DNA from: a virus
Reading direction: 5' to 3' (one strand)
Virus record (IMG/VR): IMGVR_UViG_3300021184_000001
Location: 34,854-98,853 of that record
DNA: 64,000 nucleotides
Positions 17,246-64,000 of the stretch are shown in pieces (the stretch's first letter is position 1; every line of letters starts with the position of its first letter). A program made the translations under genes and the position numbers. The notes below the pieces were generated by a model that was not told where the DNA came from, did not search any database, and worked only from the letters and a program-made list of their open reading frames with translations.

Positions 17246-17735
17246 CAACATGAACGTCCCTGCCCCACCGCCCCCGCAGATCCCTCCCATGTCGGCACCG
17301 ACCGACAGCGACGAGCCCACGGTTGTCGAGGTGCGACGCGAAGAACCCCAGGCACAAGACCAGCCGAAGAAGGACAAGAGGTCCGGTTCGTCCATTAGTG
17401 CACGCACGCGTGCACGCACGAACGGACAAACGTCAGAAAGCGCCGCTAAGAGCACAGCCGCTGAGATCATCGGCATGCTCGACAGCGTGCGTGCACACCA
17501 CGGTCACCCTCAGCTGGAACGTTCGAGCGTTAGCCACCGGTGGCCTGTGTGGGTCATCGAGACCATCGGAAAGAAGTCGCAGGTGGAGAAGCGACCGGCT
17601 GCCGACATCATCGCGGAAACGTTCAAGCGCGGTCTCGCGGGAGATCCCTATGCCGAGTACTACTACGGTGAAGCGTGTGAGCGTGTCAACGCCCGGGAGA
17701 ACGATTGGGGATCTGGTGAAGAGAACGACGATTGA
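17235..17735 (+). CDS. Putative centromere-binding partner (disordered N-terminus + RHH-like core)
   Basis: Overlaps parA stop; Pro-rich N-terminus; SVSHRWPVWVIETIGKKSQVEKRPAADIIAETFKRGL. Confidence 0.55.
   Translation: MARDNMNVPAPPPPQIPPMSAPTDSDEPTVVEVRREEPQAQDQPKKDKRSGSSISARTRARTNGQTSESAAKSTAAEIIGMLDSVRAHHGHPQLERSSVSHRWPVWVIETIGKKSQVEKRPAADIIAETFKRGLAGDPYAEYYYGEACERVNARENDWGSGEENDD
17398..17496. repeat. Three copies of GTGCACGCACG(C): two tandem, one inverted
   Basis: 17398-17409 and 17410-17421 direct; 17485-17496 reverse complement. Confidence 0.7.
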
Positions 17736-29738: not shown

Positions 29739-29754
29739 GATGGCTATCTCCTAA

Positions 29755-30108
29755 CTATTCGGTGATGGGCTGCGGCATGGTCCAGCCGGTAGACGGCTGA
29801 ACGAGGTAGAGCACTACGGCCTGCTCGGCGTCGGGCATGTAGCCGTAAACCGTTTCGTCCTCTACCGGTTCACCACCGAGAGCGGCTGGTATTTCGATCT
29901 CCAGAACGGTTTCGGTATCGGTGTTGCTGTGCGAGGCGAGGAAATATCCACGCTCGGCATCGGCCGTGGCATTGACGTAGAACCCGTAGTTCCCGCCGTT
30001 CTTGAGCCGGATCTTGAACGGCTTGGGTCCGCGCCGCCAGCTCACGATCGGCACCGGAAGGGTGGTGGGACCGTCAAGCTCGACGCGTCCAGTCCGCATT
30101 GGTGTCAT
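29755..30108 (-). CDS. Hypothetical beta-rich virion-associated protein
   Basis: 117 aa between FN3 genes; RBS AGGAG. Confidence 0.6.
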   Translation of the reverse strand: MTPMRTGRVELDGPTTLPVPIVSWRRGPKPFKIRLKNGGNYGFYVNATADAERGYFLASHSNTDTETVLEIEIPAALGGEPVEDETVYGYMPDAEQAVVLYLVQPSTGWTMPQPITE

Positions 30109-30116
30109 GGCTGCTC

Positions 30117-32342: not shown

Positions 32343-32360
32343 AGCGGCTCTCCTCTCTCG

Positions 32361-47464: not shown

Positions 47465-48979
47465 ATGCCGGATCTGTCGAAGCTGTCTGACGCGGAGCTG
47501 TACGCCTACGCCGCGCGCGTTCAGGCGCTCCACGATCCCGCCAGCCTCGGCGCCTGGATCGAACCGCGCTACCAGATCTGCCCCCACCACCGCCTCATCG
47601 GCGACCGCCTGGCGCAGCTGGCCCAACCGGGCGGCAAACGCAAGGTCATGATCTTCGCGCCCCCGCGCACCGGCAAGAGCGAGCTGGTCACCAAGAAGTT
47701 CCCGCTGTGGTGGCTCGCCCGCCACCCCCACCACCAGGTCGTCGCCGCCGCCTACGGATCGGATCTGGCCAAGAACTGGGGCCGCGACGTCCGCAAGGCC
47801 GTCCGCGAGCACGGCAGCAAACTCGGTTTGAGCATCTCCCCGGAGCAGCGCACCGCCCAAGCCTGGAAGCTCACTACCGGTGGCGGCATGAAAACTGTCG
47901 GTGTGGGTTCGGGTTTGACCGGCCATGACGGCGACCTGCTCATCTGCGACGACCCCCACAAAGACCGCGAAGAAGCCGAATCGAAGATCTTCCGCGACGC
48001 GGTCGACCACTGGTGGACCTCCACGTTCCTCACCCGAGGGTCTCCCGGCGCCCCCATCGTCCTCGTTCTCACCCGATGGCACGAAGACGACATCGCCGGT
48101 CGCCTTTTGCAACGCGAAGGCAACGAATGGGACGTCATCCGCCTCCCCGCGATCGCCGTTGACGCGAACGACCCGCTCGGCCGCGCCCTCGGCGAACCGC
48201 TCGGCCACCCGAAGATCCCCCAGGACGACAAGAACGCGCTCCTCGCGCACTGGGGCGGCCTGCAGTCCTCGCTGTCCAAGCGCGACTGGTTCGCCCTGTT
48301 CCAATGCGACCCCCAACCCGTCGAAGGGGCCCTCCTCACCCTCGAACAGATCGAAGCGTCCCGCCACCGCGCCGGAGAACCGCTCCCCGAGAAGCTGCGC
48401 GTCGCCGTCGCCGTCGACCCTTCCGGCACTGCAGGCGGCGACGAAGCCGGGATCGTCGCCGGGTTCCTCGGCGACGACAACCGCTGCTACATCACCCACG
48501 ACAAGTCCCGGCAGGCGTCCCCCACCGAATGGGCCCGCGAGGTCGCCCTCATGTCGTACGAGCTGACCGCCGACGTCATCTTCGTGGAGACGAACTTCGG
48601 CGGCGAGATGTGCAAGCTCCAGATCCAGTCAGCATGGTCCGATCTGGAGGAAGACGGTGCCATTCCACCCGATGTCCCCATCCCCCGAATAGATGAAGTT
48701 CGCGCCCGATACGGAAAACGCATTCGCGCGGACCCGGTTGCCCAATACTGGGTGCAAGGCGATATCCGTCTGGTCGGTGAACATGACAAGCTCATCCAGC
48801 AGTGGACGACCTGGCAGCCCGGTTCCCGAGAAAGCCCCGGGCGCATCGACGCCACGGTCTACCTCGCACAAGGGCTCCTCAAAGGAGCCGGATACGGGAG
48901 AGGCGAAATCATCGAACCGCCGATCGGGATGAGCATCTACGCCGACCCCCTCGACTGGGCCACCACGGACCTGTACTAG
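47465..48979 (+). CDS. terL: Terminase large subunit
   Basis: FAPPRTGKS Walker A, LICDDPHKD Walker B, VLVLTRWHEDD, VAVDPSG, SPGRIDA. Confidence 0.93.
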   Translation: MPDLSKLSDAELYAYAARVQALHDPASLGAWIEPRYQICPHHRLIGDRLAQLAQPGGKRKVMIFAPPRTGKSELVTKKFPLWWLARHPHHQVVAAAYGSDLAKNWGRDVRKAVREHGSKLGLSISPEQRTAQAWKLTTGGGMKTVGVGSGLTGHDGDLLICDDPHKDREEAESKIFRDAVDHWWTSTFLTRGSPGAPIVLVLTRWHEDDIAGRLLQREGNEWDVIRLPAIAVDANDPLGRALGEPLGHPKIPQDDKNALLAHWGGLQSSLSKRDWFALFQCDPQPVEGALLTLEQIEASRHRAGEPLPEKLRVAVAVDPSGTAGGDEAGIVAGFLGDDNRCYITHDKSRQASPTEWAREVALMSYELTADVIFVETNFGGEMCKLQIQSAWSDLEEDGAIPPDVPIPRIDEVRARYGKRIRADPVAQYWVQGDIRLVGEHDKLIQQWTTWQPGSRESPGRIDATVYLAQGLLKGAGYGRGEIIEPPIGMSIYADPLDWATTDLY

Positions 48980-52620: not shown

Positions 52621-52742
52621 ATGCTCACAATGCATTGTCGACAACCGGGCTAACATGAACGCGCCGCAGATGCTACGCTGGCACACGCGAAGAATGAAGA
52701 CACACAGGGTTGGGAGCCACCGTCTCGGCTAACCCAACCCAC

Positions 52743-52775
52743 ACAGCCCGGGGAGACCTCCGTCCCCCGGGCTGT
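52743..52775 (+). other. Hairpin in 5' leader of second DUF6879 gene
   Basis: ACAGCCCGGGG / CCCCGGGCTGT, 11-bp stem. Confidence 0.5.
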
Positions 52776-52802
52776 CCCATGCCCACGGGAAGGAACACTT
52801 CG

Positions 52803-53486
52803 ATGACCGCCATTCCACCGCTGCTGGACCCGGCCGAGGGCGAATACCTTCCCGACGAGGAGTTCTTCAGCGACTTCAACACCCGCTTCTGGGAGGCCAC
52901 CGACTTCTGGAAACTCGAACGCGCCACGCACTTCGCTGAACCCGACAGCCCCTCATGGCAGGCGTTTCAGCGCGGCAACTGGGAACTGGCCCTCCGGCTC
53001 ATCGAAGCACGCCGGACCGACCTCGAAATCCACCACGACGAGATGCGCGACCGAGGCATCACCGCCCGCCGCGTCCGCATCGTCGACGAACCCATCGGCC
53101 CCTACCTCCAATGGGAACTCCACCTACTGCGACTGCGCGACGAAGTCTCCGGCGCCACCATCCGCGTCTTCCCCACCACCGCCATCACCGAAGACGAACG
53201 CGCCTACGGCAGGGAACTCCCCGAAATCTGCACCATGGACGACACCGTTCTCTACCTCCACACCTACGACGAGCACGGCGTCCAAGACCGCAACATCCGC
53301 TTCACCGACCCGGACATCGTCACCGCGTGGCGCGACTACACCAAATACCTCTGGGAGCACGGCCTCCCCCTCGACGACTACTTCGAAAAGCACGTCAAGG
53401 GCCTCCCCGCCCCAGGCCCCGTCGAGCAGCTCCCCGACGACTACCTCGAAACGCGAGAACACTACCGGCCGAAAAAGCGCCTGTAA
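52803..53486 (+). CDS. DUF6879-like protein (second copy)
   Basis: FWKLERATHF.EP.SPSW.AF..G.W, RRVRIVDEP..PYLQWE. Confidence 0.7.
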   Translation: MTAIPPLLDPAEGEYLPDEEFFSDFNTRFWEATDFWKLERATHFAEPDSPSWQAFQRGNWELALRLIEARRTDLEIHHDEMRDRGITARRVRIVDEPIGPYLQWELHLLRLRDEVSGATIRVFPTTAITEDERAYGRELPEICTMDDTVLYLHTYDEHGVQDRNIRFTDPDIVTAWRDYTKYLWEHGLPLDDYFEKHVKGLPAPGPVEQLPDDYLETREHYRPKKRL

Positions 53487-53512
53487 GCAGGAGCGGCTGC
53501 TAGCGTCGCTCC

Positions 53513-53980
53513 ATGCGATTCGACATCCCCGGGCCCGTCCACGCCCACGTGAACATGACCATGCGACGCATCATCAAGGAAGCCGACCAGGCGCCCGTCA
53601 TCTGGGAACCCGACGAGATGCCCAAAGACCGCGACCAAGCCAGCCGACACCTCGCCGCCTTCATCGAGATGATCCAGATCGAGCTCCGCTACCGGTGGCG
53701 CGAAAGCCCCCACTTCCTGGCCGTACCTGAATGGACCCGCAACGCCCTTCTGCGCTACCCCCACCTCACCGACACCTTCACCGTCATCCCCGGCTGGGAC
53801 AACCCCCCACCCCACGACACCACCGGCCTATGGCACGCCATCGCCTTCCTGACCACGCTCAGCCCCCTGGAGACGCTGCTCTCCACCAGAGAGAGCTGGA
53901 CGAAGGCCAGCACCTTCACCTGGGTCTTCCCTTGCAACACCAGATTCCTCGGACCGATCCTGCAACCCACCCAGGAATGA
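53513..53980 (+). CDS. Hypothetical protein
   Basis: ATG 6 nt after TAGCGT; 155 aa. Confidence 0.55.
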   Translation: MRFDIPGPVHAHVNMTMRRIIKEADQAPVIWEPDEMPKDRDQASRHLAAFIEMIQIELRYRWRESPHFLAVPEWTRNALLRYPHLTDTFTVIPGWDNPPPHDTTGLWHAIAFLTTLSPLETLLSTRESWTKASTFTWVFPCNTRFLGPILQPTQE

Positions 53981-54412
53981 CGCGGCATCCCCCAACTCCG
54001 CCGCCATCTCCCCAATCGCCGCACGGCGCCGCGCAATGAAATCGTTCGCGATCTCCACCACCAGCTCCGCGCGATCGCTCACCGAACTCCACTGCAGAAG
54101 CTCCACCACCTCCTCATGCGCGCCCTCCGGCGGCGGCTCAGACGTGAACAGCAACTTCACGACCTTCCCCAACGACGCCACCGCACCCACATCCTTAGCC
54201 AGCAACCACACCAGCCGCTGCGAACACCCTATGCACTCATCCGACGCCACTGACAACCACAGCTCAACCTTCCGCTGCTCCTCCACAGTCCCGTACTCCG
54301 CACCCAAAGACCCGAACACCGGGAATCGGTGCTCCTCCGGCGCATGCCCGAACGGCAGAACTCGTCTTGTTTGCATGGCCCGGAAGTCTAGACGATCGAA
54401 CACGACAGGCAT
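53828..54412 (-). CDS. Hypothetical protein
   Basis: Protein-like composition on the G/T-rich strand; 3' end overlaps the convergent gene. Confidence 0.45.
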   Translation of the reverse strand: MPVVFDRLDFRAMQTRRVLPFGHAPEEHRFPVFGSLGAEYGTVEEQRKVELWLSVASDECIGCSQRLVWLLAKDVGAVASLGKVVKLLFTSEPPPEGAHEEVVELLQWSSVSDRAELVVEIANDFIARRRAAIGEMAAELGDAASFLGGLQDRSEESGVAREDPGEGAGLRPALSGGEQRLQGAERGQEGDGVP

Positions 54413-54561
54413 TCACTCGATGTCACCACACCCCAACCCGCCCACCCTGCTAACGTGAACACCACAGACATCCGAGCTCCACCCCCACAGAGCCGCCGCG
54501 CTGCACGGCAGTCATACCCCGAGCAGCGCGGCACCCACACCAACCCGCCAAGGACCCACCG

Positions 54562-54861
54562 ATGAGCACCCAGCCCATCTACATCACCATGAGCCACATC
54601 GCCAAAACCCTCGGATACGCCCCCAGCAACATCAACCACCTCATCACCAAATGGCACAACGACCCCGACCTACCCACCCCACCACCCGACGCACACCTCA
54701 TCGGAAACAAAACCACCCCCACCCCCCTCTGGCTCCAAGAACACCTCCCCAAATGGGAAACCTGGAACCAACAACGCATCACCCTCAGCCACGAGCGAGC
54801 TGCACACAGCCCCACCATCGGCAGACCAGCCGCCCCCGGCAAACGAACCACCCACCAGTGA
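54562..54861 (+). CDS. HTH regulator (actinophage repressor-like)
   Basis: ITMSHIAKTLG..NI..LITKW..PTPPPD..IG..LW..W; RBS AAGGA. Confidence 0.6.
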   Translation: MSTQPIYITMSHIAKTLGYAPSNINHLITKWHNDPDLPTPPPDAHLIGNKTTPTPLWLQEHLPKWETWNQQRITLSHERAAHSPTIGRPAAPGKRTTHQ

Positions 54862-54931
54862 GCATTCCTCACGTGCTACCATCATGATCTCGAAAAATTT
54901 CATGACCCCCCCTATCTTTTAAGGGGGTGTC

Positions 54932-55164
54932 GTCCACTGTGGACGGATCGGCCCTCCTTTGTAGTCTGTCGATTTTGGATTGATCCTGTGTGGACTGTCG
55001 TGTGTGGACGCATGATCTTCGCTCATTCCTGTGTGGACGTCCTTTGTGGACGCTGGCGTGTCTCTTGTGGGTTCGTCCTGTGTGGAATTGGTGAGCGTCG
55101 CTTGTGGATTATGCGCATTGGCGCGCTGGCACTAGCCGCGCGGTTAGCTACCTCTCATGTGGAC
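54932..55164 (+). repeat. Array of TGTGGA(C/T/A) motifs, DnaA-box/iteron-like
   Basis: Copies at 54938, 54989, 55003, 55032, 55045, 55081, 55103, 55158 (variant at 55066); TCCTGTGTGGA at 54984, 55027, 55076; GTCCAC-T-GTGGAC palindrome 54932-54944. Confidence 0.85.
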
Positions 55165-55813
55165 TATCTCTGTGTAGCGATGCGCTTGCGTTCGGTAGCT
55201 GGCGTCTCACTGTGTGGCATTCGGTAAACAATGTGTTCATACTCGGTATGCATGGAATGTGCCTTTGACATGCAGCTCCATTCTTGGGAGCGCTCCATTC
55301 CTTGCCAGCACGACATCACAAACTGATAACGATCATGGCCTCACCCTTGACGCCAGCGCGGTACTGTGCTATTTCGCGCGCGCACACATGCGCACCGTGT
55401 GTAGAGAGCTAGGCCGCGCTGGCGTACCCGTCCGCCTAGGCCGCTGTACGCCTCCCTACGCCGCTCCCGTGGCACGTCCCTACCCGTGACTAGGCCGCGC
55501 CACTGCCAGCGCGCTACGCCTCCCCTAGCGGCCCGTCCGAACCGGTCGCAAGCGATCTAGCAGGGGAAACGCGTATTGTCGCAGGCCAGCGCCGCAATGC
55601 CTCTTTAGCCTCATCTTGTCGCGCTGGCAGGCGTGCGCCACACGCGCCCCATCGTGTCCACTTCGGACGCTCTCGGCTCCACTTGCGACAGTGCGACGAA
55701 TCTACCAGGGAAAACGCTGCATCCTCCCAGCTCACGCCATCAATGCCTCATCCATATCGTCTCGCACCTCTAGGGATATCCCTTCACAGCGCGCGATCGC
55801 TGGCCGCGCTGGC
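55122..55813. repeat. CGCGCTGGC (6 copies) and CTAGGCCGC (3 copies) repeats
   Basis: CGCGCTGGC at 55122, 55415, 55620, 55805 and inverted at 55352, 55505; CTAGGCCGC at 55409, 55436, 55490. Confidence 0.75.
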
Positions 55814-56045
55814 GACTTGTGGCGCGTGTGGCTAGCGTGACTACTGTGACTGTCCACTGTGTAAAGCAAGCGCTTTCCGCTCGACTGTCCACAATGTCGA
55901 TACCGTGCGAATTTCAAGAATCTTGAGCCGCTGACCAGGCAATACGCAGCCTTTACCAAACCGTGACCTTTGTGGCAAGCGCTCTCATCACCTCTTAAGG
56001 GCCGACCCCATTTCCTCCCATAAGCTCGTGACCAGGCGAAACGCA

Positions 56046-56054
56046 AAACGGACA
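56046..56054. promoter_or_regulatory. AANCRGACA box in control region
   Basis: CAAAACGGACAAAA. Confidence 0.55.
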
Positions 56055-56100
56055 AAATGAAACCCCAGCTCACGGCCCCTAAAAATCGCCGTGCTGGCCT

Positions 56101-56118
56101 ATGACATAGTTATGTCAT
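56101..56118. promoter_or_regulatory. Operator-like palindrome
   Basis: ATGACATA-GT-TATGTCAT, perfect 8-bp arms. Confidence 0.55.
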
Positions 56119-56347
56119 CGCTTCCGAGCGACGCGAACCGCAAGGGGCGCGGCACTCGGGCAGGCGAATGTTGTTACCGCGCGTCCCCCATTGCGGATGC
56201 CTCAACCGAACAGTGTGTTTTGAAGCGCAGACGCGCGACGAATCCCGCCCGCATTGGGCGCTCCCTCGGGGGCGAACTGTGCACATGGCTAGCTATATGC
56301 GAAGGGGACCAGTTGCGCGGAAGATTCGGCTAGCGAAAGGATGCGTC

Positions 56348-57133
56348 ATGCATCGCGCATTTATCACAGAACGTGATTACCTTGTTTACGAGGACCCTAA
56401 GCGCGCTCGCCAGCGAATGGATGACGAACGGGCCGTAGGTATGGAAACGTTGGCGCACACTGCCCGCGCTCCCTATCCCCAGTCCGCTCCCCCCATCATG
56501 AATGTTGACGAGTTGTCGGAAGGCCCGAACCTCCCCCATAGGGATGATAAGGACATTTCGACGGAAGCGCGGGACCGGGCGGCTAAAGCTGGCTACTACC
56601 AAGCAGCAACCTACGCGTTCTCATCGGACGCGTACCTCGACAAGCCATCACCCATCGATCGCAAAGCGCGGTCCAAGCGTAAGCACGTGTCTACCAGCGG
56701 CATCACGTACGTCATGCCGCACGGTGCGGGAGTGGACAAACCACTCACGGCACGCAACAAGCACCTCATGTACAAAAACGACCCAACGGCAAGGGAAGCG
56801 CTCGCGAACGTCATGCGAGACGCCACCCCAACCGACAGCGCTGGCGAACCGGTCGCGAACCGGTACACGCTCGCAATCCCGCGCGACATGCTGGTCATGC
56901 TCGCACGGGTGCACGACATTCAAGCTAAGCGCGGCAAGCTGGCAGGTGACAACCGAAGCGACACGCTACGGGAACTCGCCGCACGCATCGAACCGGGCGA
57001 AATGGTCGATATTGACCTGTACTCGCCTAGCGAAGTGACCAGCTTGACGCAAGGGTTGCCCAAGCGTTACAAGTCCGGAGAATTCGGACAATTCCTGAAG
57101 GATCTCGCAACCTTCGTGAAAATCGAAAAGTGA
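56348..57133 (+). CDS. Hypothetical protein, first gene after control region
   Basis: RBS AAAGGA 6 nt before ATG 56348; followed by terminator. Confidence 0.65.
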   Translation: MHRAFITERDYLVYEDPKRARQRMDDERAVGMETLAHTARAPYPQSAPPIMNVDELSEGPNLPHRDDKDISTEARDRAAKAGYYQAATYAFSSDAYLDKPSPIDRKARSKRKHVSTSGITYVMPHGAGVDKPLTARNKHLMYKNDPTAREALANVMRDATPTDSAGEPVANRYTLAIPRDMLVMLARVHDIQAKRGKLAGDNRSDTLRELAARIEPGEMVDIDLYSPSEVTSLTQGLPKRYKSGEFGQFLKDLATFVKIEK

Positions 57134-57154
57134 ACAAAACGTGCAAAAGAAATC

Positions 57155-57179
57155 AGGCTGCCCATGGGCGGCCTTTTTT
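57155..57179 (+). terminator. Rho-independent terminator
   Basis: AGGCTGCCC-AT-GGGCGGCCT followed by a T tract. Confidence 0.75.
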
Positions 57180-57189
57180 CATGTCCCAA

Positions 57190-57198
57190 AACCGGACA
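57190..57198. promoter_or_regulatory. AANCRGACA box before small-gene cluster
   Basis: AAAACCGGACAAAA. Confidence 0.55.
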
Positions 57199-57576
57199 AA
57201 ACGTACGCAACCCATGCGCTCGCAACATGAACGGGCCACACGTGAAATATAAATTCTGGGACAATCTGGACATTGTCCAGCGGGTTGCGGGTCATGAGGT
57301 CGGGTCTCTGAGTATTTTTCATGCGCATCGGGTGCCTTCCCTCGCGGGTTGAGGTGCCGGTGGGCGTGAGTTGTCCTCAGAGGGCAGGTCGCTAGTAGGT
57401 GGAATAGAGCGGGCGCGGCCCCACCCCGGATAAGCGGGTGTCTGGTGGGCAAGCGGCAATCACGTCACTGAACGGGCCGTTTCTGTTGGTTCGAGCTAAT
57501 TTCATACTAATTTCAAAGTTGATGCTGGTCGGGAGCGGCATTCTCCCGAGTCATGAAGTTCGTTCGCCCGGGTGAG

Positions 57577-57608
57577 GTGCCCCGGTCATCTTCGGGTGGC
57601 CGGGGCAC
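57577..57608 (+). other. UUCG-tetraloop hairpin
   Basis: 14-bp stem closed C(TTCG)G. Confidence 0.7.
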
Positions 57609-57676
57609 TTGGCGTGCCTGGGTCTCGGGTGTTTCCCCGGGTTTTCAGTCATTGAAGTTTCAAGTAAGGAGTTGTC

Positions 57677-57889
57677 ATGTCGCGTATGAGCAAGACGACC
57701 TATAAGCAGTTCGCTGCGTTGGTGGCGGGTGTGGAGATGCCTGACAAGGTGTTCTATGACCTGCTGGAGGCGATGATCGAGGTGTTCATTGCGGACAACC
57801 CTCGTTTCAACGCGACGCTGTTCGTGGAGGCGGCCGAGATCGCGCGCTCTGGCGAGGTGTACTCATCTGTTCGTTGTGAGGAGGTGTAG
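57677..57889 (+). CDS. Small phage protein (DNPRF motif)
   Basis: SKTTYKQFA..FIADNPRFNATLFVEA; RBS AAGGAG. Confidence 0.7.
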   Translation: MSRMSKTTYKQFAALVAGVEMPDKVFYDLLEAMIEVFIADNPRFNATLFVEAAEIARSGEVYSSVRCEEV

Positions 57890-57892
57890 CGA

Positions 57893-58315
57893 ATGGTGCA
57901 TCGGTTGACGACTGAGCACGTGAAGGCGATCGCGGGTGCGATCGGTTCGGTGGTCATGCCGCACGGGTCCCGTAAGGAGCTCGCGGGTGTGGTCGCGGAT
58001 GTTCTGGAGGAGACGACTCCGAAGGACAGGCAGGGGAACGTGAAGCCTGAGACGTGGTTCTCGGGTCGGAAGCGGGCCGTGTTCATGCAGACGGCTGCTC
58101 CGGAGGTGGGTGTGGAGATCGTCGTGAACGCGTCGATGTCCTCGCAGGGCGAGTTGCTGTATCAGGGCTGGTCGTTGGAGGTGACGCACCCGAAGTGGGG
58201 TGTGTCCTCGCACCGGCCCGAGGAGGACTCGTTCAAGGCGGTGATGGAGCTGGCGTGGCGCGAGCACTTCGTGCGTGATTTCGGGTCGGTTCCGGTTCGT
58301 ATCGAGAAGCTGTAA
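57893..58315 (+). CDS. Hypothetical protein
   Basis: RBS GAGGAGG. Confidence 0.7.
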   Translation: MVHRLTTEHVKAIAGAIGSVVMPHGSRKELAGVVADVLEETTPKDRQGNVKPETWFSGRKRAVFMQTAAPEVGVEIVVNASMSSQGELLYQGWSLEVTHPKWGVSSHRPEEDSFKAVMELAWREHFVRDFGSVPVRIEKL

Positions 58316-58328
58316 GGGAGGTTGGCCT

Positions 58329-58682
58329 GTGGCTGGTGTGGGTCGGGTTGAGGTTCAGGTGGAGGCGCAGACGGACCGGGTGTTCGCGGACTGGTTGTAT
58401 GCCCAGTTGTGCGAGGGTGACCGGATTGCGGCTCCGGACGGGACGTGCGAGGCGTGGGAGTTCGGGGCGGTGAATCCGCTTTCGGGCGCGGTCGAGGTGC
58501 CGTGGGGTCAGTTCGAGGATGATCCGGCGCGGGCGGTGTCGTGGTTGCTGCGTAAGCGTCCGCCGGAGGTGCTGCCTGCGGTGGTCGCTGAGTACGACCG
58601 GGGCAGGCGTGTGGTGTCGCTGCGGTGGGGTCGGCATGTGCCGACGTCGCGGGCGGTCGCGGGTGCGGTCCTGCTGGGTTGA
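58329..58682 (+). CDS. Hypothetical protein
   Basis: RBS GGGAGG before GTG. Confidence 0.6.
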   Translation: MAGVGRVEVQVEAQTDRVFADWLYAQLCEGDRIAAPDGTCEAWEFGAVNPLSGAVEVPWGQFEDDPARAVSWLLRKRPPEVLPAVVAEYDRGRRVVSLRWGRHVPTSRAVAGAVLLG

Positions 58683-58693
58683 GAGCCAGGTGT

Positions 58694-58741
58694 GAGTCCG
58701 TCGCGTCCCTTTCGGGGGGTGGGCGGGCTGCCACAAGGTTC
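58694..58741 (+). repeat. Intergenic hairpin element, copy A
   Basis: GAGTCCGTC..CCCTTTCGGGG..GGGCGGGCTGCCACAAGGTTC. Confidence 0.7.
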
Positions 58742-58764
58742 CCAGTTCGAGAGGAGGGGCGTCT

Positions 58765-59028
58765 ATGGCGCGTGAGGTGGTGCGGTTGCACCGTGACAGG
58801 GGTTCGCTGGTGGGTCGGGTGATCTACCGGGGCGAGCCTGGGAAAGAGGTCGAGGGAGACGAGCGGCCGTGGCGTGAGGTGCTGGCTGAGGCTGCGGGTG
58901 TGGTCGGTGCTGGGGAGCTGGTGACGGTTCGGGTGTTCGGGAGGTCCCGGGACACGACGTACAACAGCGGGTACGGGCAGTTGACCGAGTACCCGGTGCA
59001 GCTGCCGAGGGCGCGGGCCGGGTCGTGA
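58765..59028 (+). CDS. Hypothetical protein
   Basis: RBS GAGGAGGGG. Confidence 0.65.
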   Translation: MAREVVRLHRDRGSLVGRVIYRGEPGKEVEGDERPWREVLAEAAGVVGAGELVTVRVFGRSRDTTYNSGYGQLTEYPVQLPRARAGS

Positions 59029-59160
59029 AGCGGTGGGAGCGGCGCCGGTGCGGTGTGTGCGGGGGCCGGGTCGTGCGGGTGCGCCGGTGGGGTCGGGACT
59101 GGGGTCCGTGGCGTCACACGCGGTGGCACCGGAAGGCGGGTCATTGCTGGTTGTAGTGGG

Positions 59161-59211
59161 TTACGAGAGCCCGTCGCCCTACGGGGGTGGGGGCGGGTTG
59201 TCACAGCCTTC
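59161..59211 (+). repeat. Intergenic hairpin element, copy B
   Basis: TTACGAGAGCCCGTCGCCC-TACG-GGGGTGGGGGCGGGTTGTCACAGCCTTC. Confidence 0.75.
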
Positions 59212-59241
59212 TAGGACACTAGAACGATGAGAGGACGGCTC

Positions 59242-59595
59242 ATGTCTGAGGACAAGTTGGAGTTGGCGCGCCGGATGGCGGCCGACAAGACGAACCATCG
59301 CAAGCGCACGTGGGAGTCGCGGATCACGCGCTGGTTCCCTCCCCGATTCGGCGTGGTGTGGGTGCACGTGCGCATGGACCGGGAGCCGGACCGGCCGATG
59401 ACGGCCCGCATGTCGGTCGAGGACGCGCGCGAGATGGTGGTGGATCTGTCCATCAACGACTCGCCCTCGCGTCCGGGTCTGTTCTCCGGGGAACTGGACC
59501 GGCACGCCCGCATCCAGAAATTGCGCCTGCTGGTGCACCTGGGTGTGAGCGAGGACCTGGCGCGGGAGGTCGCCGGAGTCGGCAACGAGGCGTGA
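59242..59595 (+). CDS. Hypothetical protein
   Basis: RBS GAGAGGA; 117 aa. Confidence 0.65.
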   Translation: MSEDKLELARRMAADKTNHRKRTWESRITRWFPPRFGVVWVHVRMDREPDRPMTARMSVEDAREMVVDLSINDSPSRPGLFSGELDRHARIQKLRLLVHLGVSEDLAREVAGVGNEA

Positions 59596-59600
59596 GCGCT

Positions 59601-59643
59601 TTACGGGAGCCCGTCCCTTCGGGGGCGGGTTGCGGCAAGGTTC
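59601..59643 (+). repeat. Intergenic hairpin element, copy C
   Basis: TTACGGGAGCCCGTCCC-TTCG-GGGGCGGGTTGCGGCAAGGTTC. Confidence 0.75.
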
Positions 59644-59667
59644 TCAAGCTAATGGAAGGAGGCTCGC

Positions 59668-60144
59668 ATGTGGAAGTTGGAAGAGCGGCGGGTCGATGAC
59701 GAGTTCGACAAGCGCACGCCCGAGGAGCACCGCGAGATCAGGGCCCGGGAGGACTTCCCGGCCGTGCGGATGTACCGGACCGAGTTCGCGCGGTGGGAGG
59801 ACCCGGACGCGGCCGAGCCTGAAAAGCTCGGCACGCTGGCCGTGGTCTGGGAACTGGTCGAGGCCCCGTGCGAGTGCGGGTCCGATCCGGCCGAGCCCGA
59901 CGACTGCGTGTGCGACCGTCTCGAAGGGGCGCTTGCGACCGTGCTCGCGGAGTGGGACGTGTTCCCCTCCTCGGATTGGGAGCCGTCCGCGTCCCCTTGG
60001 GACGCGGCCGACGAGAACGTCTGGGTGTCCGCGACCGAGAAGTACCTGTACGAGCAGCACACGCAGTACGAGTACAGCCTGCACTTCGAAGGCGTCACGG
60101 CCGAGGTGCGCGGCGAGTTGTTCGCCGCGCTAGGTGTCAAGTAG
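59668..60144 (+). CDS. Acidic hypothetical protein
   Basis: RBS AAGGAGG; CECG..CVC. Confidence 0.7.
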   Translation: MWKLEERRVDDEFDKRTPEEHREIRAREDFPAVRMYRTEFARWEDPDAAEPEKLGTLAVVWELVEAPCECGSDPAEPDDCVCDRLEGALATVLAEWDVFPSSDWEPSASPWDAADENVWVSATEKYLYEQHTQYEYSLHFEGVTAEVRGELFAALGVK

Positions 60145-60165
60145 CAGGAGGAAGGGAGTGGCGGC

Positions 60166-60702
60166 ATGGCCGTCCCGTACTACTTCAACACCCGGTCGCA
60201 AGCCGATTGGGTGGTGGAAGAATCCGCGCTCGATGAGTCGTACCGCGACGTCTGCAACCCGAATCCGCGCGAGCGGAAGACGTGGGAGGCGACGCTGACC
60301 GTCAAGCATCACGGGCTTGACAAGCGGGCGGTCGTCATGGCGTCGTACTGGCCGGGTAAGCCGGTCGTAGTCGAGTACCTGTGGGCGCATGTCCTCAGTG
60401 ACGTTCCGACGCTCGGCGTCAACGAGCACCTGTACACGCGGGTTGCTCCGGCGGGGCGGTACAACCCGAAGTCGGCGCGTGACCTTGCGTACCGGGGGTC
60501 TGTGGAGTCACCCAAGCGTGAGGACTACCGCGAGGACACGCACGGGTTGTTCGCGTACGGGGTCTACATGGACGCGCTTCAGGTCTGGCGCGACTCGCTG
60601 GCCGACGCGCGGGAGCACAACCGGCAGCACCAGCCGATCCGGGACGCGATCAGCGGGGTGTTGAGCGCGCTCGAAAAGAAGGTTCGCGCGGACAAGGGAT
60701 AG
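60166..60702 (+). CDS. Hypothetical protein
   Basis: RBS AGGAAGGGAG. Confidence 0.7.
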   Translation: MAVPYYFNTRSQADWVVEESALDESYRDVCNPNPRERKTWEATLTVKHHGLDKRAVVMASYWPGKPVVVEYLWAHVLSDVPTLGVNEHLYTRVAPAGRYNPKSARDLAYRGSVESPKREDYREDTHGLFAYGVYMDALQVWRDSLADAREHNRQHQPIRDAISGVLSALEKKVRADKG

Positions 60703-60715
60703 CCGAGGAGGGCTG

Positions 60716-61270
60716 ATGCTGAAAGCGAAAAAGTCGTTCATGTGGGCGTGCCAGACCGAGACGGGTTGCTACCGCGACAGCGTGTGGTGCGCTGAGTGCG
60801 GGGGTGTGGAGGCCGACGCCCAGTTCAGCCGGGTGAGTCCGGTGTCCGATCCGGACGGGAGCCGTCTGGAGTGCCACCGTTTCCTGCCCGGTCCCGGTTA
60901 CACGGGCCTGGTGGGTGGGCCGCTCCCGAGTGAGGGGGGTCGGATTTGCGGGGCCGTGACCATGATCGCCACTGAGGAGGTCGACCGGCGACGCCGGGTC
61001 ATCGCTGAGGCCGAACAGGCGGAGCGGGTGCCGACGTGGGCGAAGTACGCGGGCCGGTTCTTCGAGGTGTTCGACGCTGGAACGCGGGTCGTCTCCGGGT
61101 TGCGTCCCGATGTGGCCGGTGAGGTCGTCCAGTATCACCGCGAGTGCTCGCACGGGCACCACTTCAACGGGATTGTTCGTATCCGGTACGCGGTGCCGGT
61201 GTCGAAGCTGTATCCGGACGGGTGGCAGGTGCTGGACACGGGAGCGGTCACGCTCACCGCAGTGGCGTAG
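60716..61270 (+). CDS. Hypothetical Cys-containing protein
   Basis: RBS GAGGAGG. Confidence 0.65.
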   Translation: MLKAKKSFMWACQTETGCYRDSVWCAECGGVEADAQFSRVSPVSDPDGSRLECHRFLPGPGYTGLVGGPLPSEGGRICGAVTMIATEEVDRRRRVIAEAEQAERVPTWAKYAGRFFEVFDAGTRVVSGLRPDVAGEVVQYHRECSHGHHFNGIVRIRYAVPVSKLYPDGWQVLDTGAVTLTAVA

Positions 61271-61288
61271 GCCTCCAGTGGTGACCAG

Positions 61289-61822
61289 GTGCACGGGGGT
61301 GCCTGGTTTCGCGCTGAAGACCTATTCGAGAGGAGGCCTGGCATGGAAGCGGTGGCAACGGGTTATGACCTGGTGCACGCGGCCGTGGATGCGTGGTGGG
61401 CTGAGCACACCAGCGCAAACCGCAACGGTGAGTGCGTCGTGTGCTCGCAGTGGGATCTGGATTTCGACTACGTCGCGGACGTGGCGTGGGCGGGTCTGGA
61501 TACGGCCATGTGGTCCTCGTCAGGGAACGGCGGGGACTGGTCCTTCCCCGCGATGTACCAGCGCGAGGACATCGACGCAGCGGTCGCTGTGGCGTTCACG
61601 CGGGAGGTCGCCGAGTTCTGCCACGCGATGTGGGTCGACGTCGTCGCGATCGGCGCGGGGCAGGTGGGTCACGATTTCGTGCTCACCCGCAACGGTGAGG
61701 GCACCGGGTTCTGGGACCGGGGCCTGGGGGAGGCCGGTGACCGGCTCACGGCCCGCTGCGAGCCGTACGGGGCGTTCGTCCTGTACGTGGGTGACGACGG
61801 GGCGCTGCACGCGCACAACTAG
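61289..61822 (+). CDS. Phage protein with GHDFxLTRNGxGxGFWDRG motif (true start may be ATG 61343)
   Basis: Motif recognised from small phage early proteins; GAGGAGG before 61343. Confidence 0.7.
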   Translation: MHGGAWFRAEDLFERRPGMEAVATGYDLVHAAVDAWWAEHTSANRNGECVVCSQWDLDFDYVADVAWAGLDTAMWSSSGNGGDWSFPAMYQREDIDAAVAVAFTREVAEFCHAMWVDVVAIGAGQVGHDFVLTRNGEGTGFWDRGLGEAGDRLTARCEPYGAFVLYVGDDGALHAHN

Positions 61823-61845
61823 CGAGGGAAACGAGGAGGGTTCAC

Positions 61846-62022
61846 GTGAACGGTTACATTGCGTTCGTCGAGGGCAAGCGGCACGAGATCGAGGCCGAGG
61901 ACCTGTACGAGGCGAGCGTGAAGGCGCGCGCGCTGTACAAGGGCCGCAAGAAGCGGCCGACGGTCAACGTCACGCTCGCCGAGATCGACGGTGAGCCGGT
62001 CGTGCACACGGCGGTCGACTAG
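61846..62022 (+). CDS. Small phage protein (MNGYIAF type), absent from ORF track
   Basis: 58 aa VNGYIAFVEGKRHEIEAEDLYEA..VTLAEIDGEPVVHT; RBS GAGGAGG. Confidence 0.7.
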   Translation: MNGYIAFVEGKRHEIEAEDLYEASVKARALYKGRKKRPTVNVTLAEIDGEPVVHTAVD

Positions 62023-62039
62023 CAGGGGGAGGGTCATTC

Positions 62040-62354
62040 GTGAAGGTATTCGAGTCGAAACCCGGGCTCACGTGGCCCGAGCACATCGCTCGGGTGGTCG
62101 CGTCCGGTGAGGAGTACTGGCGTCTGGTCCAGCGATCGGACACGATGCTGGCCGTGCGGGAGCAACGCGATGAGGGCGACTTCGGGGACGTGCTGCTGAT
62201 CGCGACGTTGCACACGTGGCGTCGGGTCGCCGATGAGCTGGACGCGTGGGTCATCGTGAACGGCATGCGCGACCCGGCCGGACGCGAGCAGACGCGCGCG
62301 TGGTGCGAGGTGATCCGCCGGGGGGTCCTCGGCGAAGGCGGCAGCGGGTCATAG
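62040..62354 (+). CDS. Hypothetical protein
   Basis: RBS GGGGAGGG. Confidence 0.65.
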   Translation: MKVFESKPGLTWPEHIARVVASGEEYWRLVQRSDTMLAVREQRDEGDFGDVLLIATLHTWRRVADELDAWVIVNGMRDPAGREQTRAWCEVIRRGVLGEGGSGS

Positions 62355-62361
62355 GTCGTTC

Positions 62362-62398
62362 CAGCGGTTACCACGCCTTCGGGCGTGGTGGCGCGCTG
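62362..62398 (+). other. UUCG-tetraloop hairpin
   Basis: ACCACGCC-TTCG-GGCGTGGT core with outer CAGCG/CGCTG. Confidence 0.65.
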
Positions 62399-62428
62399 CA
62401 TCCACCTATCACGATGAGGAGGCAACGC

Positions 62429-62764
62429 ATGGACCGGGAGTCGAAGCCGGTCGACACGTGGGTCGATGACGAAGGCGCTCACGAGATCCACCAGTTCGAC
62501 AACGGGTGGGGTCTGTCGATCATCAACGAGGCGCACCGCTTGGGTGTGCTCGCCGAGCCGTTCGGGAGGACCGCGCTGTTGCGGGCGGTCCTGAACGGGT
62601 GGAAGGTCGAGCAGAAGATCGCACACGACGCGGTGCCCGAGGAACTGGGTCACTACTTCATCTGGGACGGGACCGGTTCGTGGAAGGGCCGCGCGGAAGC
62701 GGCGGCGATTCTCGCGGCCGTCCAGTCCTACTACGAGGACAACAGCGAAGAGAACGACGAGTAG
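62429..62764 (+). CDS. Hypothetical protein
   Basis: RBS GAGGAGG. Confidence 0.65.
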   Translation: MDRESKPVDTWVDDEGAHEIHQFDNGWGLSIINEAHRLGVLAEPFGRTALLRAVLNGWKVEQKIAHDAVPEELGHYFIWDGTGSWKGRAEAAAILAAVQSYYEDNSEENDE

Positions 62765-62772
62765 GAGGCACT

Positions 62773-63018
62773 ATGGAAGACGAGAAACTGTCGTACTCGT
62801 GTCGGGGCGTGACCTTCACGTGGGAGGGCGGCGAGTACATCGACGTGTGGAACGGCGGCGAGTACGCCGTCGCCACCAACAACGTCTGGACCGCGACCGA
62901 CGGCGTCGGGCACGCCACGATCCCGTTCACACAGGACGCGTTCGAGGCCGAGTGCGACGCGTGGCTCGCGGGCCTGCGTCCGGAGGAGATCGCCGAGTAC
63001 GGCGTCACCAGCAAGTAG
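62773..63018 (+). CDS. Small phage protein
   Basis: GVTFTWEGGEYIDV..NVW..IPFTQDAF; RBS AGGAGG. Confidence 0.7.
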   Translation: MEDEKLSYSCRGVTFTWEGGEYIDVWNGGEYAVATNNVWTATDGVGHATIPFTQDAFEAECDAWLAGLRPEEIAEYGVTSK

Positions 63019-63035
63019 AGAGTATGAGGTGAGCG

Positions 63036-63389
63036 ATGCGGTTGACATCAGCGCGAGTGCACGAGGTGCTGTTGCCGGTTTGCGAGGCGACCGGTCATCG
63101 GGACTGGTTGCAGATCAACAATCCCGGCGACGGGAAGGGCAAGCACTACATCCCGAACCACGGAGGGTTTCGCGGGCGGCTCTGGGTGGGTGGCCCGGGT
63201 GCGGCGTCGGCCCTGTCCTATCTGGGCGGGGTCGCGGCCGTGTTCGGCGTCGACCTGTCCGATCCGGACACGCGAGCGGTGCTCGAATACCTTCACGCCT
63301 CCGGCCGGTTCGACAGTGAGGCCGAGGCCGAAGGACGCCGCGATGCCGAGGCGCTAAAAGAGCGGCAGGAGCGAGTGTCGGAAGCGTAA
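63036..63389 (+). CDS. Hypothetical protein
   Basis: 117 aa; GAGG upstream. Confidence 0.55.
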   Translation: MRLTSARVHEVLLPVCEATGHRDWLQINNPGDGKGKHYIPNHGGFRGRLWVGGPGAASALSYLGGVAAVFGVDLSDPDTRAVLEYLHASGRFDSEAEAEGRRDAEALKERQERVSEA

Positions 63390-63500
63390 CCGGGTTGTTC
63401 GCTGGTTGCCCATGATCGGCCCTCGCACGGGGGTGCGGGCCGGTTCGTGGGGTCTGTCGAACCGCACAGGCTGTAGATTCCTCACGTTAGGAGGTTCGGT

Positions 63501-63947
63501 TTGGGTAAGAAGGACGCGCGTGAGGCGTTCAACGAACTCCTCGATTCGCTTCCGGCCACGGACGGCAACGAGCACGCACCGTTCGCGGCGCTGATCAAGG
63601 CGTTCCCGACACGGACGATGTCCAGTCCGGAGCGGCGTGGCGCGGTGCACCTGGAGTGGACGAACCACCAGTGGCCGTTCTACGACGTCACGTTCAACGG
63701 ATGGGAGGGCGCGGCCGGGCGGCGTGAGATCGCGCTGGTCGAATCGTTGCAGCCCTTCACCGAGGACGGGGTCGAGGCCCGGTTCATCGACTCCGGCGGC
63801 TGGGCGCAGATGCGCATCGTCGTCGACTACGGCGACATGCCACTCGACACGTTCAAGCAGGTGCTCAACCTGATCCGGCCCTACCGGGTCGACTCGGGTT
63901 ACACCTGGGTCGCGTACAAGGACCTGAAGCAGGCGCCGCGCGGGTAG
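63501..63947 (+). CDS. Hypothetical protein
   Basis: TTG start after AGGAGG; TAGATT upstream. Confidence 0.6.
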   Translation: MGKKDAREAFNELLDSLPATDGNEHAPFAALIKAFPTRTMSSPERRGAVHLEWTNHQWPFYDVTFNGWEGAAGRREIALVESLQPFTEDGVEARFIDSGGWAQMRIVVDYGDMPLDTFKQVLNLIRPYRVDSGYTWVAYKDLKQAPRG

Positions 63948-64000
63948 CAAGCGCAAGCTGACATCGACGCGCCGGGTGCGCGGCTGATCATGTGGATGGT

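Follow-up and report, generated by a model that had tools for sequence, protein, structure and literature searches.

The TGTGGA repeats in this stretch of phage DNA (the window, 64,000 nucleotides in all) form an array that opens a conserved, mostly non-coding cassette of ~2.6 kb, running from 54,862 to ~57,400. From left to right, the cassette holds an extended −10-like TGnTAnnnT element, a C7/G5 inverted repeat, the array itself, a palindrome, ~1 kb with further repeats, one inverted TGTGGAC box, the gene for an orphan protein, a terminator and an AT-rich block. Its anatomy, its uniqueness in the genome, its conservation among relatives and the position-dependent strand skew that accompanies it are matters of direct observation. 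As to what the cassette does, we tentatively suggest, as a real but far from secure possibility, that it is an origin-type nucleoprotein assembly site, and at most a second origin of this phage.

The genome that carries the cassette belongs to a soil actinophage and has a circular map of 138,035 bp (about 138 kb). It encodes no integrase, PolA, PolB or DnaB, and it does encode a ParA; its replication must therefore draw on the host replisome, and a plasmid lifestyle is possible. Three full genomes (G000, G001 and G002) were compared, with genome-wide genes called by a crude GC-frame filter rather than a trained gene finder. A blastn search of 50,697 phage records with the 52.5–58.5 kb region gave no match, no relatives were found among 185,579 species genomes, and exact-motif scans of viral and metagenome contigs recovered only two already-found relatives. 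An Rfam search of 52–60 kb at permissive E-values returned only a chance match to PhrS, a sigma-70 consensus scan found no promoter, and Pfam and PHROGs together recognized DUF6879 alone among 20 flanking ORFs.

The array (54933..55221, + strand) comprises 11 co-oriented TC-N3-TGTGGA(C) sites spanning 54,938–55,219, eight of them exact and three degenerate (at 54960, 55066 and 55213), in agreement with an earlier note on this DNA that had counted eight or nine co-oriented TGTGGA motifs. The eight exact copies fall within 54938–55158, out of 49 on the + strand of the whole 138,035 bp; the Poisson probability of at least eight in 221 bp is 3e-14, or ~4e-11 when corrected for the number of windows. 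The extended motif TCNNNTGTGGA has 11 matches genome-wide, eight of which are inside the array, and the array is the sole cluster of such sites in the genome. Sites are spaced by 13–15, 21–23, 29 or ~50–55 bp, and in relatives the array takes the form of a 14-bp tandem unit, TGTGGACGGTCGCA. Only 5/66 columns vary in the repeat cores vs 58/249 in the spacers (P = 0.003), showing that the cores evolve more slowly than the spacers and are under constraint.

To the left of the array, the cassette starts with the TGnTAnnnT element (TGCTACCAT; 54874..54882, + strand), a putative promoter that reads into the array and is kept in nine of 10 aligned loci despite their differing upstream genes. It is followed by an AT-rich stretch and then the inverted repeat C7/TATCTTTTAA/G5 (together 54890..54927), which is found in 12 of 12 loci and is predicted to fold as a hairpin (z = −1.9); its stem is the same everywhere, whereas the AT-rich loop varies. 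The CCCCCT/AGGGGG pair described earlier at the skew switch is this same C7-TATCTTTTAA-G5 repeat (54906–54927), and the GTCCAC-T-GTGGAC palindrome described with it is also in place, at 54932–54944. A near-perfect palindrome, CTAGCCGCGCGGTTAG (55132..55147), sits between array sites 9 and 10, and its counterpart in L027 is perfect over 18 bp. Overlapping the array's end and extending into the non-coding region (55122..55813) is a second repeat family, CGCGCTGGC, with four direct and two inverted copies, so that six of the genome's 23 copies occur within 700 bp; the same interval has three copies of CTAGGCCGC, and CTAG occurs there 12 times vs 1.3 expected. Substitutions across 54862–56300 showed no 3-base periodicity. 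Further right, one TGTGGAC site in reverse orientation (reading CTGTCCACA on the + strand; 55885..55893, − strand) faces the array; it is conserved in the window and in L002, L003, L024, L025 and L031, and has variants in L027, L030 and L033. An intrinsic terminator (57155..57179, + strand) follows the orphan gene, its stem preserved in distant relatives via compensatory changes. The conserved AT-rich right border (57181..57400) contains AAAACCGGACAAAAC at 57188, GGGACAATCTGGACATTGTCCAG at 57258, CTCTGAGTATTTTTCATGCGC at 57306 and TTGTCCTCA at 57371, as well as three of the genome's twelve most AT-rich 30-bp windows. As for an unwinding element beside the repeats, the AT-rich stretch adjoining the array (54890–54922) is modest, and it is at the far end of the cassette, at 57.1–57.5 kb, that the genome is truly AT-rich.

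The sole protein gene that is constant in the cassette (56348..57133, + strand; P0004/P0005 family) encodes the orphan protein of 261 aa. It has a pN/pS of 0.19–0.24 with third-position periodicity, and 16 homologs with identity down to 42%. Searches with the protein gave no Pfam (E 1), PHROG, PDB-sequence profile, fold or ESM Atlas match, and a wide PDB search gave nothing above background. An AlphaFold model built from the 16 sequences has a mean pLDDT of 55.7 and is confident only in the C-terminal 90 residues; an RHH fold guessed by eye for residues 174–213 went unconfirmed, the structure and profile searches both being empty. The proposal that the site is a Rep-dependent origin is not borne out, as this sole conserved cassette protein matches no known Rep family or fold and no recognized initiator family is encoded in or beside the cassette by Pfam, PHROG, PDB-sequence or fold comparison.

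An HTH gene had been claimed beside the array, and homolog search and fold modelling agree: a small gene of the P0001 family (54562..54861, + strand) ends where the cassette begins, and its 99-aa product is modelled as a winged HTH (wHTH) plus a long helix (pLDDT 87.5). Its structural matches are weak (E 0.1–0.6) and fall in the MerR/RacA/Cox/BldC/TerS DNA-binding class. The family has 21 homologs, with tblastn matches in L002, L003, L024, L025, L027, L030, L031 and L032. In every relative with enough flank a homolog lies 0.1–2.2 kb upstream of the array, and the distant loci L036 and L037 have one at the same position. Divergence of the wHTH protein showed no co-variation with the repeat sequence, the motif still being TGTGGACGG at 36% protein identity.

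The cassette layout (hairpin, array, roughly 1–2 kb of non-coding DNA, protein gene, terminator) is kept in 12 related loci, ten of which were found through P0004, so that the protein gene of the layout is in those ten a P0004 homolog. Conservation of this layout reaches down to 42% identity for the orphan protein and 36% for the wHTH protein. For the non-coding part of 10 loci, only both ends were aligned, extra-gene insertions in L024, L025 and L032 having broken the full-length alignment.

The cassette also lies between two domains of opposite strand composition. The base counts given in the earlier note are exact: 54661–54720 has 6 G and 33 C, and 58321–58380 has 31 G and 10 C. In the left flank (52710..54900), the + strand is strongly C/A-rich, with a GC skew of −0.2 to −0.64 that rises toward the cassette; the genes here vary among relatives, and the same skew is seen where left-flank genes are non-homologous. 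One real gene in this domain lies on the − strand (53985..54412; tblastn 64% aa identity, E 9e-43, to a − strand gene of L024), its coding strand being G-rich and its GC-frame pattern fitting the − strand, and the overlapping + strand ORF at 54036–54458 is probably spurious. Although pN/pS failed to settle the strand of ORFs across 53.5–54.9 kb, homology did so for 53985–54412, and a skew that holds regardless of gene direction, as had been asserted, is thus upheld. The right flank (57250..64000, + strand) consists of small genes with a G/T-rich coding strand, the first four having GC3 skews of +0.36 to +0.60, in a block that continues past the window end to ~70 kb (window coordinates). The mirrored pattern, C/A-rich to the left and G/T-rich to the right, recurs in all loci with enough flank, whatever the direction or identity of the genes.

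Two earlier statements about this skew need amendment. On the one hand, the inversion was called sharp, and the C/A-rich domain does stop abruptly at ~54,900; on the other hand, the sustained G/T-rich domain starts only at ~57,250, and the 2.3 kb of cassette between them is roughly neutral, being G/T-rich in the array only. Similarly, cumulative skew over the whole genome has its minimum inside the cassette, but at 57,241 rather than at the 54,915 given for the switch, and the T-A skew minimum is at 57253. The skew is strongest at the cassette borders and local, extending about 2–4 kb to the left and 13–15 kb to the right. Dividing the whole genome into two replichores was rejected as a model, since GC3 skew is best partitioned by the 13–15-kb G-rich block. 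Since this block ends at an operon boundary and forms no replichore, the right-hand skew may belong to the early operon.

Skew steps by 4–5 SD, more than anywhere else in the genome, at the cassette and at a second locus, 58 kb away, which encodes a lambda-O-like initiator with internal iterons (wHTH, HTH_36, phrog_270). The linker-coding part of the O-like gene holds five to six CCGGTACTTTTT repeats, and the gene has undergone allelic replacement in relatives. The skew flip there (at 31.55 kb of the genome) lies ~0.7 kb away from the iterons, at a point where genes converge, and so this locus is a weak positive control for the idea that skew marks origins. Two origins are usual in a plasmid lifestyle, as with oriR and oriL of P1. 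Given that a more canonical initiator is present 58 kb away, the cassette would be at most a second origin. The sign of the skew is that expected of a bidirectional origin on both sides (leading strand G/T-rich). The bidirectional origin proposed in the earlier note is favoured by the unique array with its conserved cores, the sign of the skew, the cumulative minimum within the cassette and a gene content that includes ParA but neither an integrase nor PolA, PolB or DnaB, while the local extent of the skew and the O-like initiator elsewhere weigh against it.

If the cassette is an origin-type site, the array would be the protein-loading end of a conserved cis-acting element. A sequence-specific phage protein, with the upstream MerR/Xis-like wHTH protein and the cassette-encoded orphan protein as candidates, might polymerize head to tail on the 8–11 co-oriented TGTGGAC(GG) sites, and the single inverted site ~0.95 kb downstream, together with the palindrome, could assist DNA looping. 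Such a nucleoprotein complex would open the DNA and allow bidirectional replication to start within the cassette, which could then serve as a plasmid-maintenance or alternative lytic origin distinct from the lambda-O-type one. Repeated firing with fixed fork polarity, or long-lived single-stranded DNA, could produce a mirrored skew of the C-to-T type that would decay outward from both cassette borders. The binding partner proposed for the array, the opening of DNA here and the start of replication here are all inferred. A bolder version, which we think unlikely, is that a repeatedly firing or R-loop/D-loop-driven initiation site keeps its flanks single-stranded for long periods; these would become a strand-asymmetric hypermutation zone that reshapes the amino-acid composition of accessory genes and drives early-gene turnover, the orphan protein being a new kind of initiator and the wHTH protein its array-binding partner.

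How else might the cassette be explained? Recruitment of host DnaA, either at a DnaA-dependent origin or at a datA-type DnaA sink, would suit a phage without replisome genes of its own, and the actinobacterial box TTGTCCACA does have TGTGGAC as its 7-bp core (PMC4285127). The loose consensus for Streptomyces, YY[GA]TCCAC[AC] (PMC3583192), accommodates TGTGGACGG, five boxes with at most one mismatch occur in 55158–57798, TTGTCCYCA is conserved at the right border, and the two sites singled out earlier, TGTGGACTA (55158) and TGTGGATTA (55103), are each one mismatch from TGTGGAYAA as stated. However, the preferred 9-mer over the 12 loci is TGTGGACGG and never the high-affinity TGTGGACAA, which is absent from the cassettes of all 12, and the window has no perfect box; its 12 boxes with at most one mismatch, vs 9.75 expected, are at chance level, and the loose consensus fits only two sites in its cassette. 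Moreover, site positions 8–9 are conserved as GG, not AA, and an invariant TC, which precedes the core by 5 and 4 bp with 3 bp between, lies outside any DnaA box. DnaA arrays have an 11-bp spacing, as opposed to the 14-bp unit found here. The DnaA dependence put forward in the earlier note is thus not supported, and we consider a cluster of host DnaA boxes very unlikely. Control of transcription at the late/early boundary is unlikely. Here the array would serve as operator or roadblock, the regulator being the wHTH or the orphan protein, acting as a repressor or in the manner of an antiterminator; TGnTAnnnT would drive a non-coding RNA of ~1.4 kb, the right border would hold early promoters, and the right-block skew would be a property of the early operon. 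It is exactly at the two borders of the cassette that a + strand unit (52710–54861) ends and a long block of small early-like genes starts, with a conserved promoter-like −10 element and a conserved terminator and AT-rich blocks upstream of the early genes, and the G-rich block stops at an operon boundary ~13–15 kb downstream. MerR/Cox/BldC-like wHTH proteins are, in addition, transcription factors that bind direct repeats. Yet the early genes start 2.7 kb downstream of the array, which is present only once in the genome and forms no dispersed operator set. Transcription alone also fails to explain the G-rich block, since the heavily transcribed late structural genes are C-rich on their coding strand, and the left flank consists mostly of + strand genes whose C/A-rich coding strand is the opposite of a transcription-driven bias. 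The presence of ParA, the absence of an integrase and the co-oriented short repeats near a conserved DNA-binding protein would all fit plasmid-prophage housekeeping, with the array acting in the manner of a centromere or, like P1 incA, in copy control and incompatibility, by titrating or pairing a protein of the phage. We hold this to be improbable indeed: parA (16370–17245) is 38 kb away with its own GTGCACGCACG repeats (two direct and one inverted, 17398–17496), the array fails as a type Ib partition centromere in not being adjacent to the parA operon, the skew is left unexplained, a plasmid state has never been observed, and the search of 185,579 species genomes was empty.

Two further explanations concern packaging and genome ends. 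In a headful pac site, the co-oriented repeats would directionally load a small-terminase-like wHTH protein, with the first cut made nearby. Assemblies of these phages are circular or permuted, their TerL has a Terminase_6N domain and cultured relatives that include the circularly permuted Twister6, and the distant locus L037 has the same gene order of terL, a few genes, wHTH and non-coding cassette. The modelled wHTH fold also resembles, weakly, a packaging-redirection protein and the DNA-binding domains of small terminases of the lambda type. Loading would resemble the way in which translocases of the FtsK/TraB type read 8-bp repeats that share one orientation. Streptomyces TraB recognizes clt via co-oriented short repeats with a 14-bp unit, and the clt of pSVH1 contains a 14-bp direct repeat (PMC3583192). 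A pac site nevertheless appears quite unlikely: the array is 5.9 kb downstream of terL (47465–48979), with a tRNA and about nine genes between and no adjacent terS; the mirrored skew, the 1.2 kb of extra non-coding DNA and the conserved orphan gene would go unexplained; and no Logan contig from four soil runs ends at the array, though contigs cannot show molecule ends. Joined fixed ends of a linear genome, with a T7-like terminal repeat and adjacent short repeats, are extremely unlikely. The site does separate a late-type unit from a block of early-type genes and has an array of short repeats beside it, and end-initiated strand displacement would be expected to yield the same sign of skew. Against this stand the circular map and the breaks of the three genome contigs at three different places away from the site, the ends of G000 being adjacent in G001 and G002 and the 123-bp terminal repeat of G002 being located elsewhere. 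Contigs from independent metagenomes (X1, X3 and X4) span the site, the circularly permuted TerL relative is headful, and the family B polymerase needed for protein-primed end replication is absent. The earlier suggestion of joined physical ends is thus disfavoured.

In large actinophages hardly any origins, pac sites or control regions have been mapped. This locus offers a cis-acting cassette that is deeply conserved and has precise limits, along with two proteins that are candidates for binding it. If its mirrored skew, decaying outward, is the footprint of initiation, it would provide a sequence-only marker for such sites in uncultured phages, and would show that where an accessory gene lies relative to an initiation site can dominate its codon usage and its amino-acid composition. 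As a pac site or a transcriptional switch, by contrast, the cassette would be an ordinary element of a new lineage.

Among known systems, the array resembles the clt/TRS of Streptomyces TraB, the KOPS of FtsK and pac sites (P1 hexamers, SPP1 pacL/pacR) in its short co-oriented repeats, which in those systems load a double-stranded DNA translocase directionally, but it is not beside terS or terL, and the remainder of the cassette would be superfluous to a pac site. The 99-aa wHTH protein beside direct repeats recalls the head-to-tail binding of P2 Cox, lambda Xis, Streptomyces BldC and Bacillus subtilis RacA, and its top modelled fold matches, weak as they are (E 0.1–0.6), are in that class; it belongs to a phage without an integrase and so is not a recombination directionality factor. 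Bacterial oriC, as in Streptomyces and Mycobacterium (TTGTCCACA), shares with the cassette the 7-bp core, many boxes within a few hundred bp, a nearby AT-rich element and a switch in skew (PMC4285127), whereas the cassette has no high-affinity box and no dnaA or dnaN nearby, and differs in the GG at positions 8–9, the extra TC and the 14-bp unit. Exactly the arrangement of a lambda-type origin inside an O gene exists in this genome at the O-like locus, while the TGTGGA cassette lies outside any gene, 58 kb off, and has a different repeat. Finally, the cassette may be compared with the iteron theta origins of actinomycete plasmids and phage-plasmids (pWTY27, pFP1/pFP11, SCP2, pZL12, and P1 oriR/incA as the general model). 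It departs from these in that its repeats, all in one orientation, make up a tandem unit of 14 bp, its protein has no Rep match, ~1.2 kb of extra non-coding DNA parts the array from the gene, and it belongs to a tailed phage of 138 kb that has a lambda-O-type initiator as well. Typical iterons, at 17–22 bp, are longer than the 14-bp unit, although short direct-repeat iterons of 7–9 bp are documented in Streptomyces theta plasmids (PMC3583192). What the cassette and these origins have in common is a unique non-coding locus in which short repeats (7–9 bp) and inverted repeats lie beside the gene for a poorly conserved protein, as well as replication that would here too be bidirectional, in an element with ParA and without an integrase (PMC3583192).

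The TGTGGA cluster described in the earlier note is genuine: eight plus-strand copies lie within 221 bp (54938–55158) vs 49 in 138 kb (corrected P ~4e-11), and three degenerate copies bring the co-oriented array to 11 sites, ending at 55,219. Every core has an invariant TC 5 and 4 bp upstream, with 3 bp in between. The array is a lone cluster in the genome and not a set of scattered operators: eight of the 11 genome matches to the extended motif TCNNNTGTGGA sit here. Among three close genomes, variable columns number 5 of 66 in the cores vs 58 of 249 in the spacers (Fisher P = 0.003), and taken as a whole the array region shows no greater identity than the genes around it. The base counts claimed for the adjoining skew switch were exact on recount, and the inverted repeat (C7/G5) and 13-bp palindrome placed there were both recovered.

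The array opens a conserved, mostly non-coding cassette (~54,862–57,400). Seven further loci were reached through the 16 homologues (down to 42% identity) of the 261-aa orphan protein encoded in it (56348–57133, plus strand), and two others, more distant again, through homologues of the 99-aa protein encoded upstream; nearly all 12 loci share one order of elements. A promoter-like TGnTAnnnT, ~25–40 nt before an inverted repeat, is followed by an AT-rich stretch, the inverted repeat itself (C5–7, AT-rich loop, G4–5), a conserved TTGTGGACGGATCGGCCC, three to 11 co-oriented TGTGGAC(GG) sites (forming exact tandem copies of a 14-bp unit, TGTGGACGGTCGCA, where the array is more regular), a palindrome around GCCGCGCGGCTAGC, a non-coding stretch of ~1–2 kb in which CGCGCTGGC and CTAGGCCGC recur, one inverted box, CTGTCCACA (present in most loci), a protein gene (with homology to the orphan family P0004 shown outside loci L036 and L037), a terminator whose stem is preserved via compensatory changes, and a conserved AT-rich block with AAAACCGGACAAAAC, GGGACAnTnTGGACA, CTCTGAGTATTTTTCATGCGC and TTGTCCYCA. 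Six of the 23 genome copies of CGCGCTGGC fall inside 700 bp of the cassette, where CTAG is ninefold enriched. Substitutions show no three-base periodicity across 54862–56300; in the orphan-protein gene this periodicity is present, with pN/pS of 0.19–0.24.

In one contig, assembled from an independent soil run, similarity is confined to 54895–57286 and the sequence diverges on either side, and insertions and replacements in other relatives likewise lie at the cassette borders, so that the cassette is best described as a conserved unit with mosaic flanks. At its right edge (57500–57676) two related loci, L002 and L003, have 300–440 bp inserted immediately before the first early gene, marking a mosaic boundary. 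In three others an additional gene separates the array from the gene for the orphan protein (L024:4298–4828, L025:4424–4894, L032:619–1059), those of L024 and L025 being homologous neither to each other nor to the window. This gene follows a conserved TTGAC(A/G)...TAGACATGAGAGG element; cargo is therefore tolerated at one point of the cassette.

The plus strand is C/A-rich from ~52.7 kb, with GC skew as low as −0.64, and this domain ends abruptly at ~54,900, which bears out one half of the claimed sharp switch; the sustained G/T-rich domain starts only at ~57,250. Between the two, the array is G/T-rich and the remaining cassette near neutral. The whole-genome cumulative GC-skew minimum (57,241) falls at a spot that ranks among the genome's most AT-rich, and the T–A skew minimum lies at 57,253. 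That the skew disregards gene direction also held: the minus-strand gene 53985–54412, confirmed by 64% protein identity to distant relatives, has the same plus-strand C-richness as its plus-strand neighbours. A plus-strand ORF at 54036–54458 is probably its shadow, having a Ser/Thr-rich translation and an atypical GC-frame pattern; also in the C/A-rich flank, a 155-aa gene holds a 27-bp tandem duplication (2.1 copies, 53557–53623).

To the right, the first four genes are under purifying selection with G-rich coding strands; the genome norm is C-rich coding strands for genes of either strand. Mirrored skew occurs in every relative with enough flank (10 of 12 loci), many of the flank genes being non-homologous. 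The effect is set by position, not by gene. A segmentation model combining gene orientation with two segments was used, and a replichore pattern was rejected, the G-rich segment running only 13–15 kb (from 90–92 kb to ~105 kb of the genome). This segment stops at an operon boundary, and the left-hand shift dies away within 2–4 kb.

Two proteins are candidate array binders. The adjacent HTH gene proposed earlier (54562–54861, plus strand) encodes the 99-aa protein, whose confident model (pLDDT 87.5) is a winged HTH ending in a long helix at the C terminus; its best structural matches, all weak, are MerR-type domains, RacA, P2 Cox, BldC and small-terminase DNA-binding domains, a fold class whose members typically line up head to tail on direct repeats. 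All relatives with enough sequence have a homologue upstream of the array. The other candidate is the orphan protein, whose gene alone is always within the cassette and for which we detected no relatives of known function.

The phage, a tailed actinophage, is represented by a soil contig of 138,035 bp (66% G+C; estimated completeness 97%, IMG/VR), of which the window spans bases 34,854–98,853. It has two near-full relatives, G001 (141 kb) and G002 (142 kb), at roughly 80–95% nucleotide identity. Its genes include RecD2-like and UvrD-like helicases, an AAA_24 ATPase, a PD-(D/E)XK nuclease, a sulfotransferase and ParA, along with a RusA-like match; across the whole genome we found neither a recombinase of the tyrosine or serine type nor a DnaB-type helicase, and no DNA polymerase of family A or B. 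The phage appears host-dependent and possibly plasmid-forming. It also has a lambda-O-like initiator (HTH_36; phrog_270, E 5e-5) at genome 31636–32850, minus strand (L006:13636–14850; window ~−3217 to −2003, hence outside it). Five to six CCGGTACTTTTT repeats (genome 32,228–32,370, L006:14228–14370, just outside the window) lie inside the DNA encoding its lysine-rich linker. G001 and G002 carry an allelic replacement of equal size in the same slot, missed in both by a protein search with P0042. No skew steps in the genome exceed those at this locus and at the cassette. The second flip is at genome 31,547 (within 29075–33600, outside the window), and genes to its left include an HTH_31–TPR regulator with GC3 skew of −0.81. 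Because this flip is offset by 0.7 kb from the iterons and falls where genes converge, the O-like locus is only a weak control.

Overall, the feature is real, has no second copy in its genome, and is both deeply conserved and clearly functional. We tentatively rate first an origin-type nucleoprotein site, in which case the genome would have a second origin in addition to the O-type; the origin claim stands to that extent, but the O-like initiator with its iterons opposes a primary-origin role. Dependence on DnaA, as originally proposed, is not borne out: the high-affinity actinobacterial box is TTGTCCACA (PMC4285127), and the window has no perfect copy and near matches at chance level. Over the 12 loci the preferred 9-mer is TGTGGACGG, never TGTGGACAA, and the extra conserved TC falls outside any DnaA box, which indicates a dedicated binding protein; DnaA involvement, which overlaps the origin reading, is improbable.

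It is unlikely that the site works as a transcriptional switch, or yields a non-coding RNA, where late and early genes meet; a headful pac site is somewhat less likely still. The earlier suggestion of joined, fixed physical ends fares worst and is very unlikely. TerL (47465–48979) has a Terminase_6N domain, and its nearest cultured relatives are in Saccharomonospora phage PIS 136 and Gordonia phages (39–43% identity), a relative being that of the circularly permuted Gordonia phage Twister6. The contig ends adjoin each other in both G001 and G002, and the three contigs have different cut points relative to the feature, so the map is circular (a circle, concatemer or permuted genome); what looks like a ‘terminal repeat’ in G002 is an overlap of 123 bp in an unrelated part of the map. 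It is this circular map, the contigs from three runs that cross the site and the Twister6-related TerL that argue against fixed ends. Plasmid copy control or a centromere is also a poor prospect, the latter being less likely for the array because the ParA operon has its own repeats.

These are copies of GTGCACGCACG, two in tandem and one inverted (17398–17496), between parA (16370–17245) and small downstream genes, and are likely the operator or centromere of the ParA system. Separately, a TAAAnCrGACA box has 17 genome matches, 15 in plus orientation (25263–57190 in the window, 60–122 kb genome-wide). The boxes are mostly intergenic and occur in minus-strand structural operons as well as plus-strand ones; their orientation therefore tracks the genome and not transcription, which is odd for a promoter; they could conceivably be a DNA signal specific to one strand, for a nick, priming or translocation polarity.

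Elements of this general kind are already known; the novelty lies in the variants seen here, namely the cassette itself, the orphan protein it encodes and a mirrored skew that is sharply local and independent of the genes.
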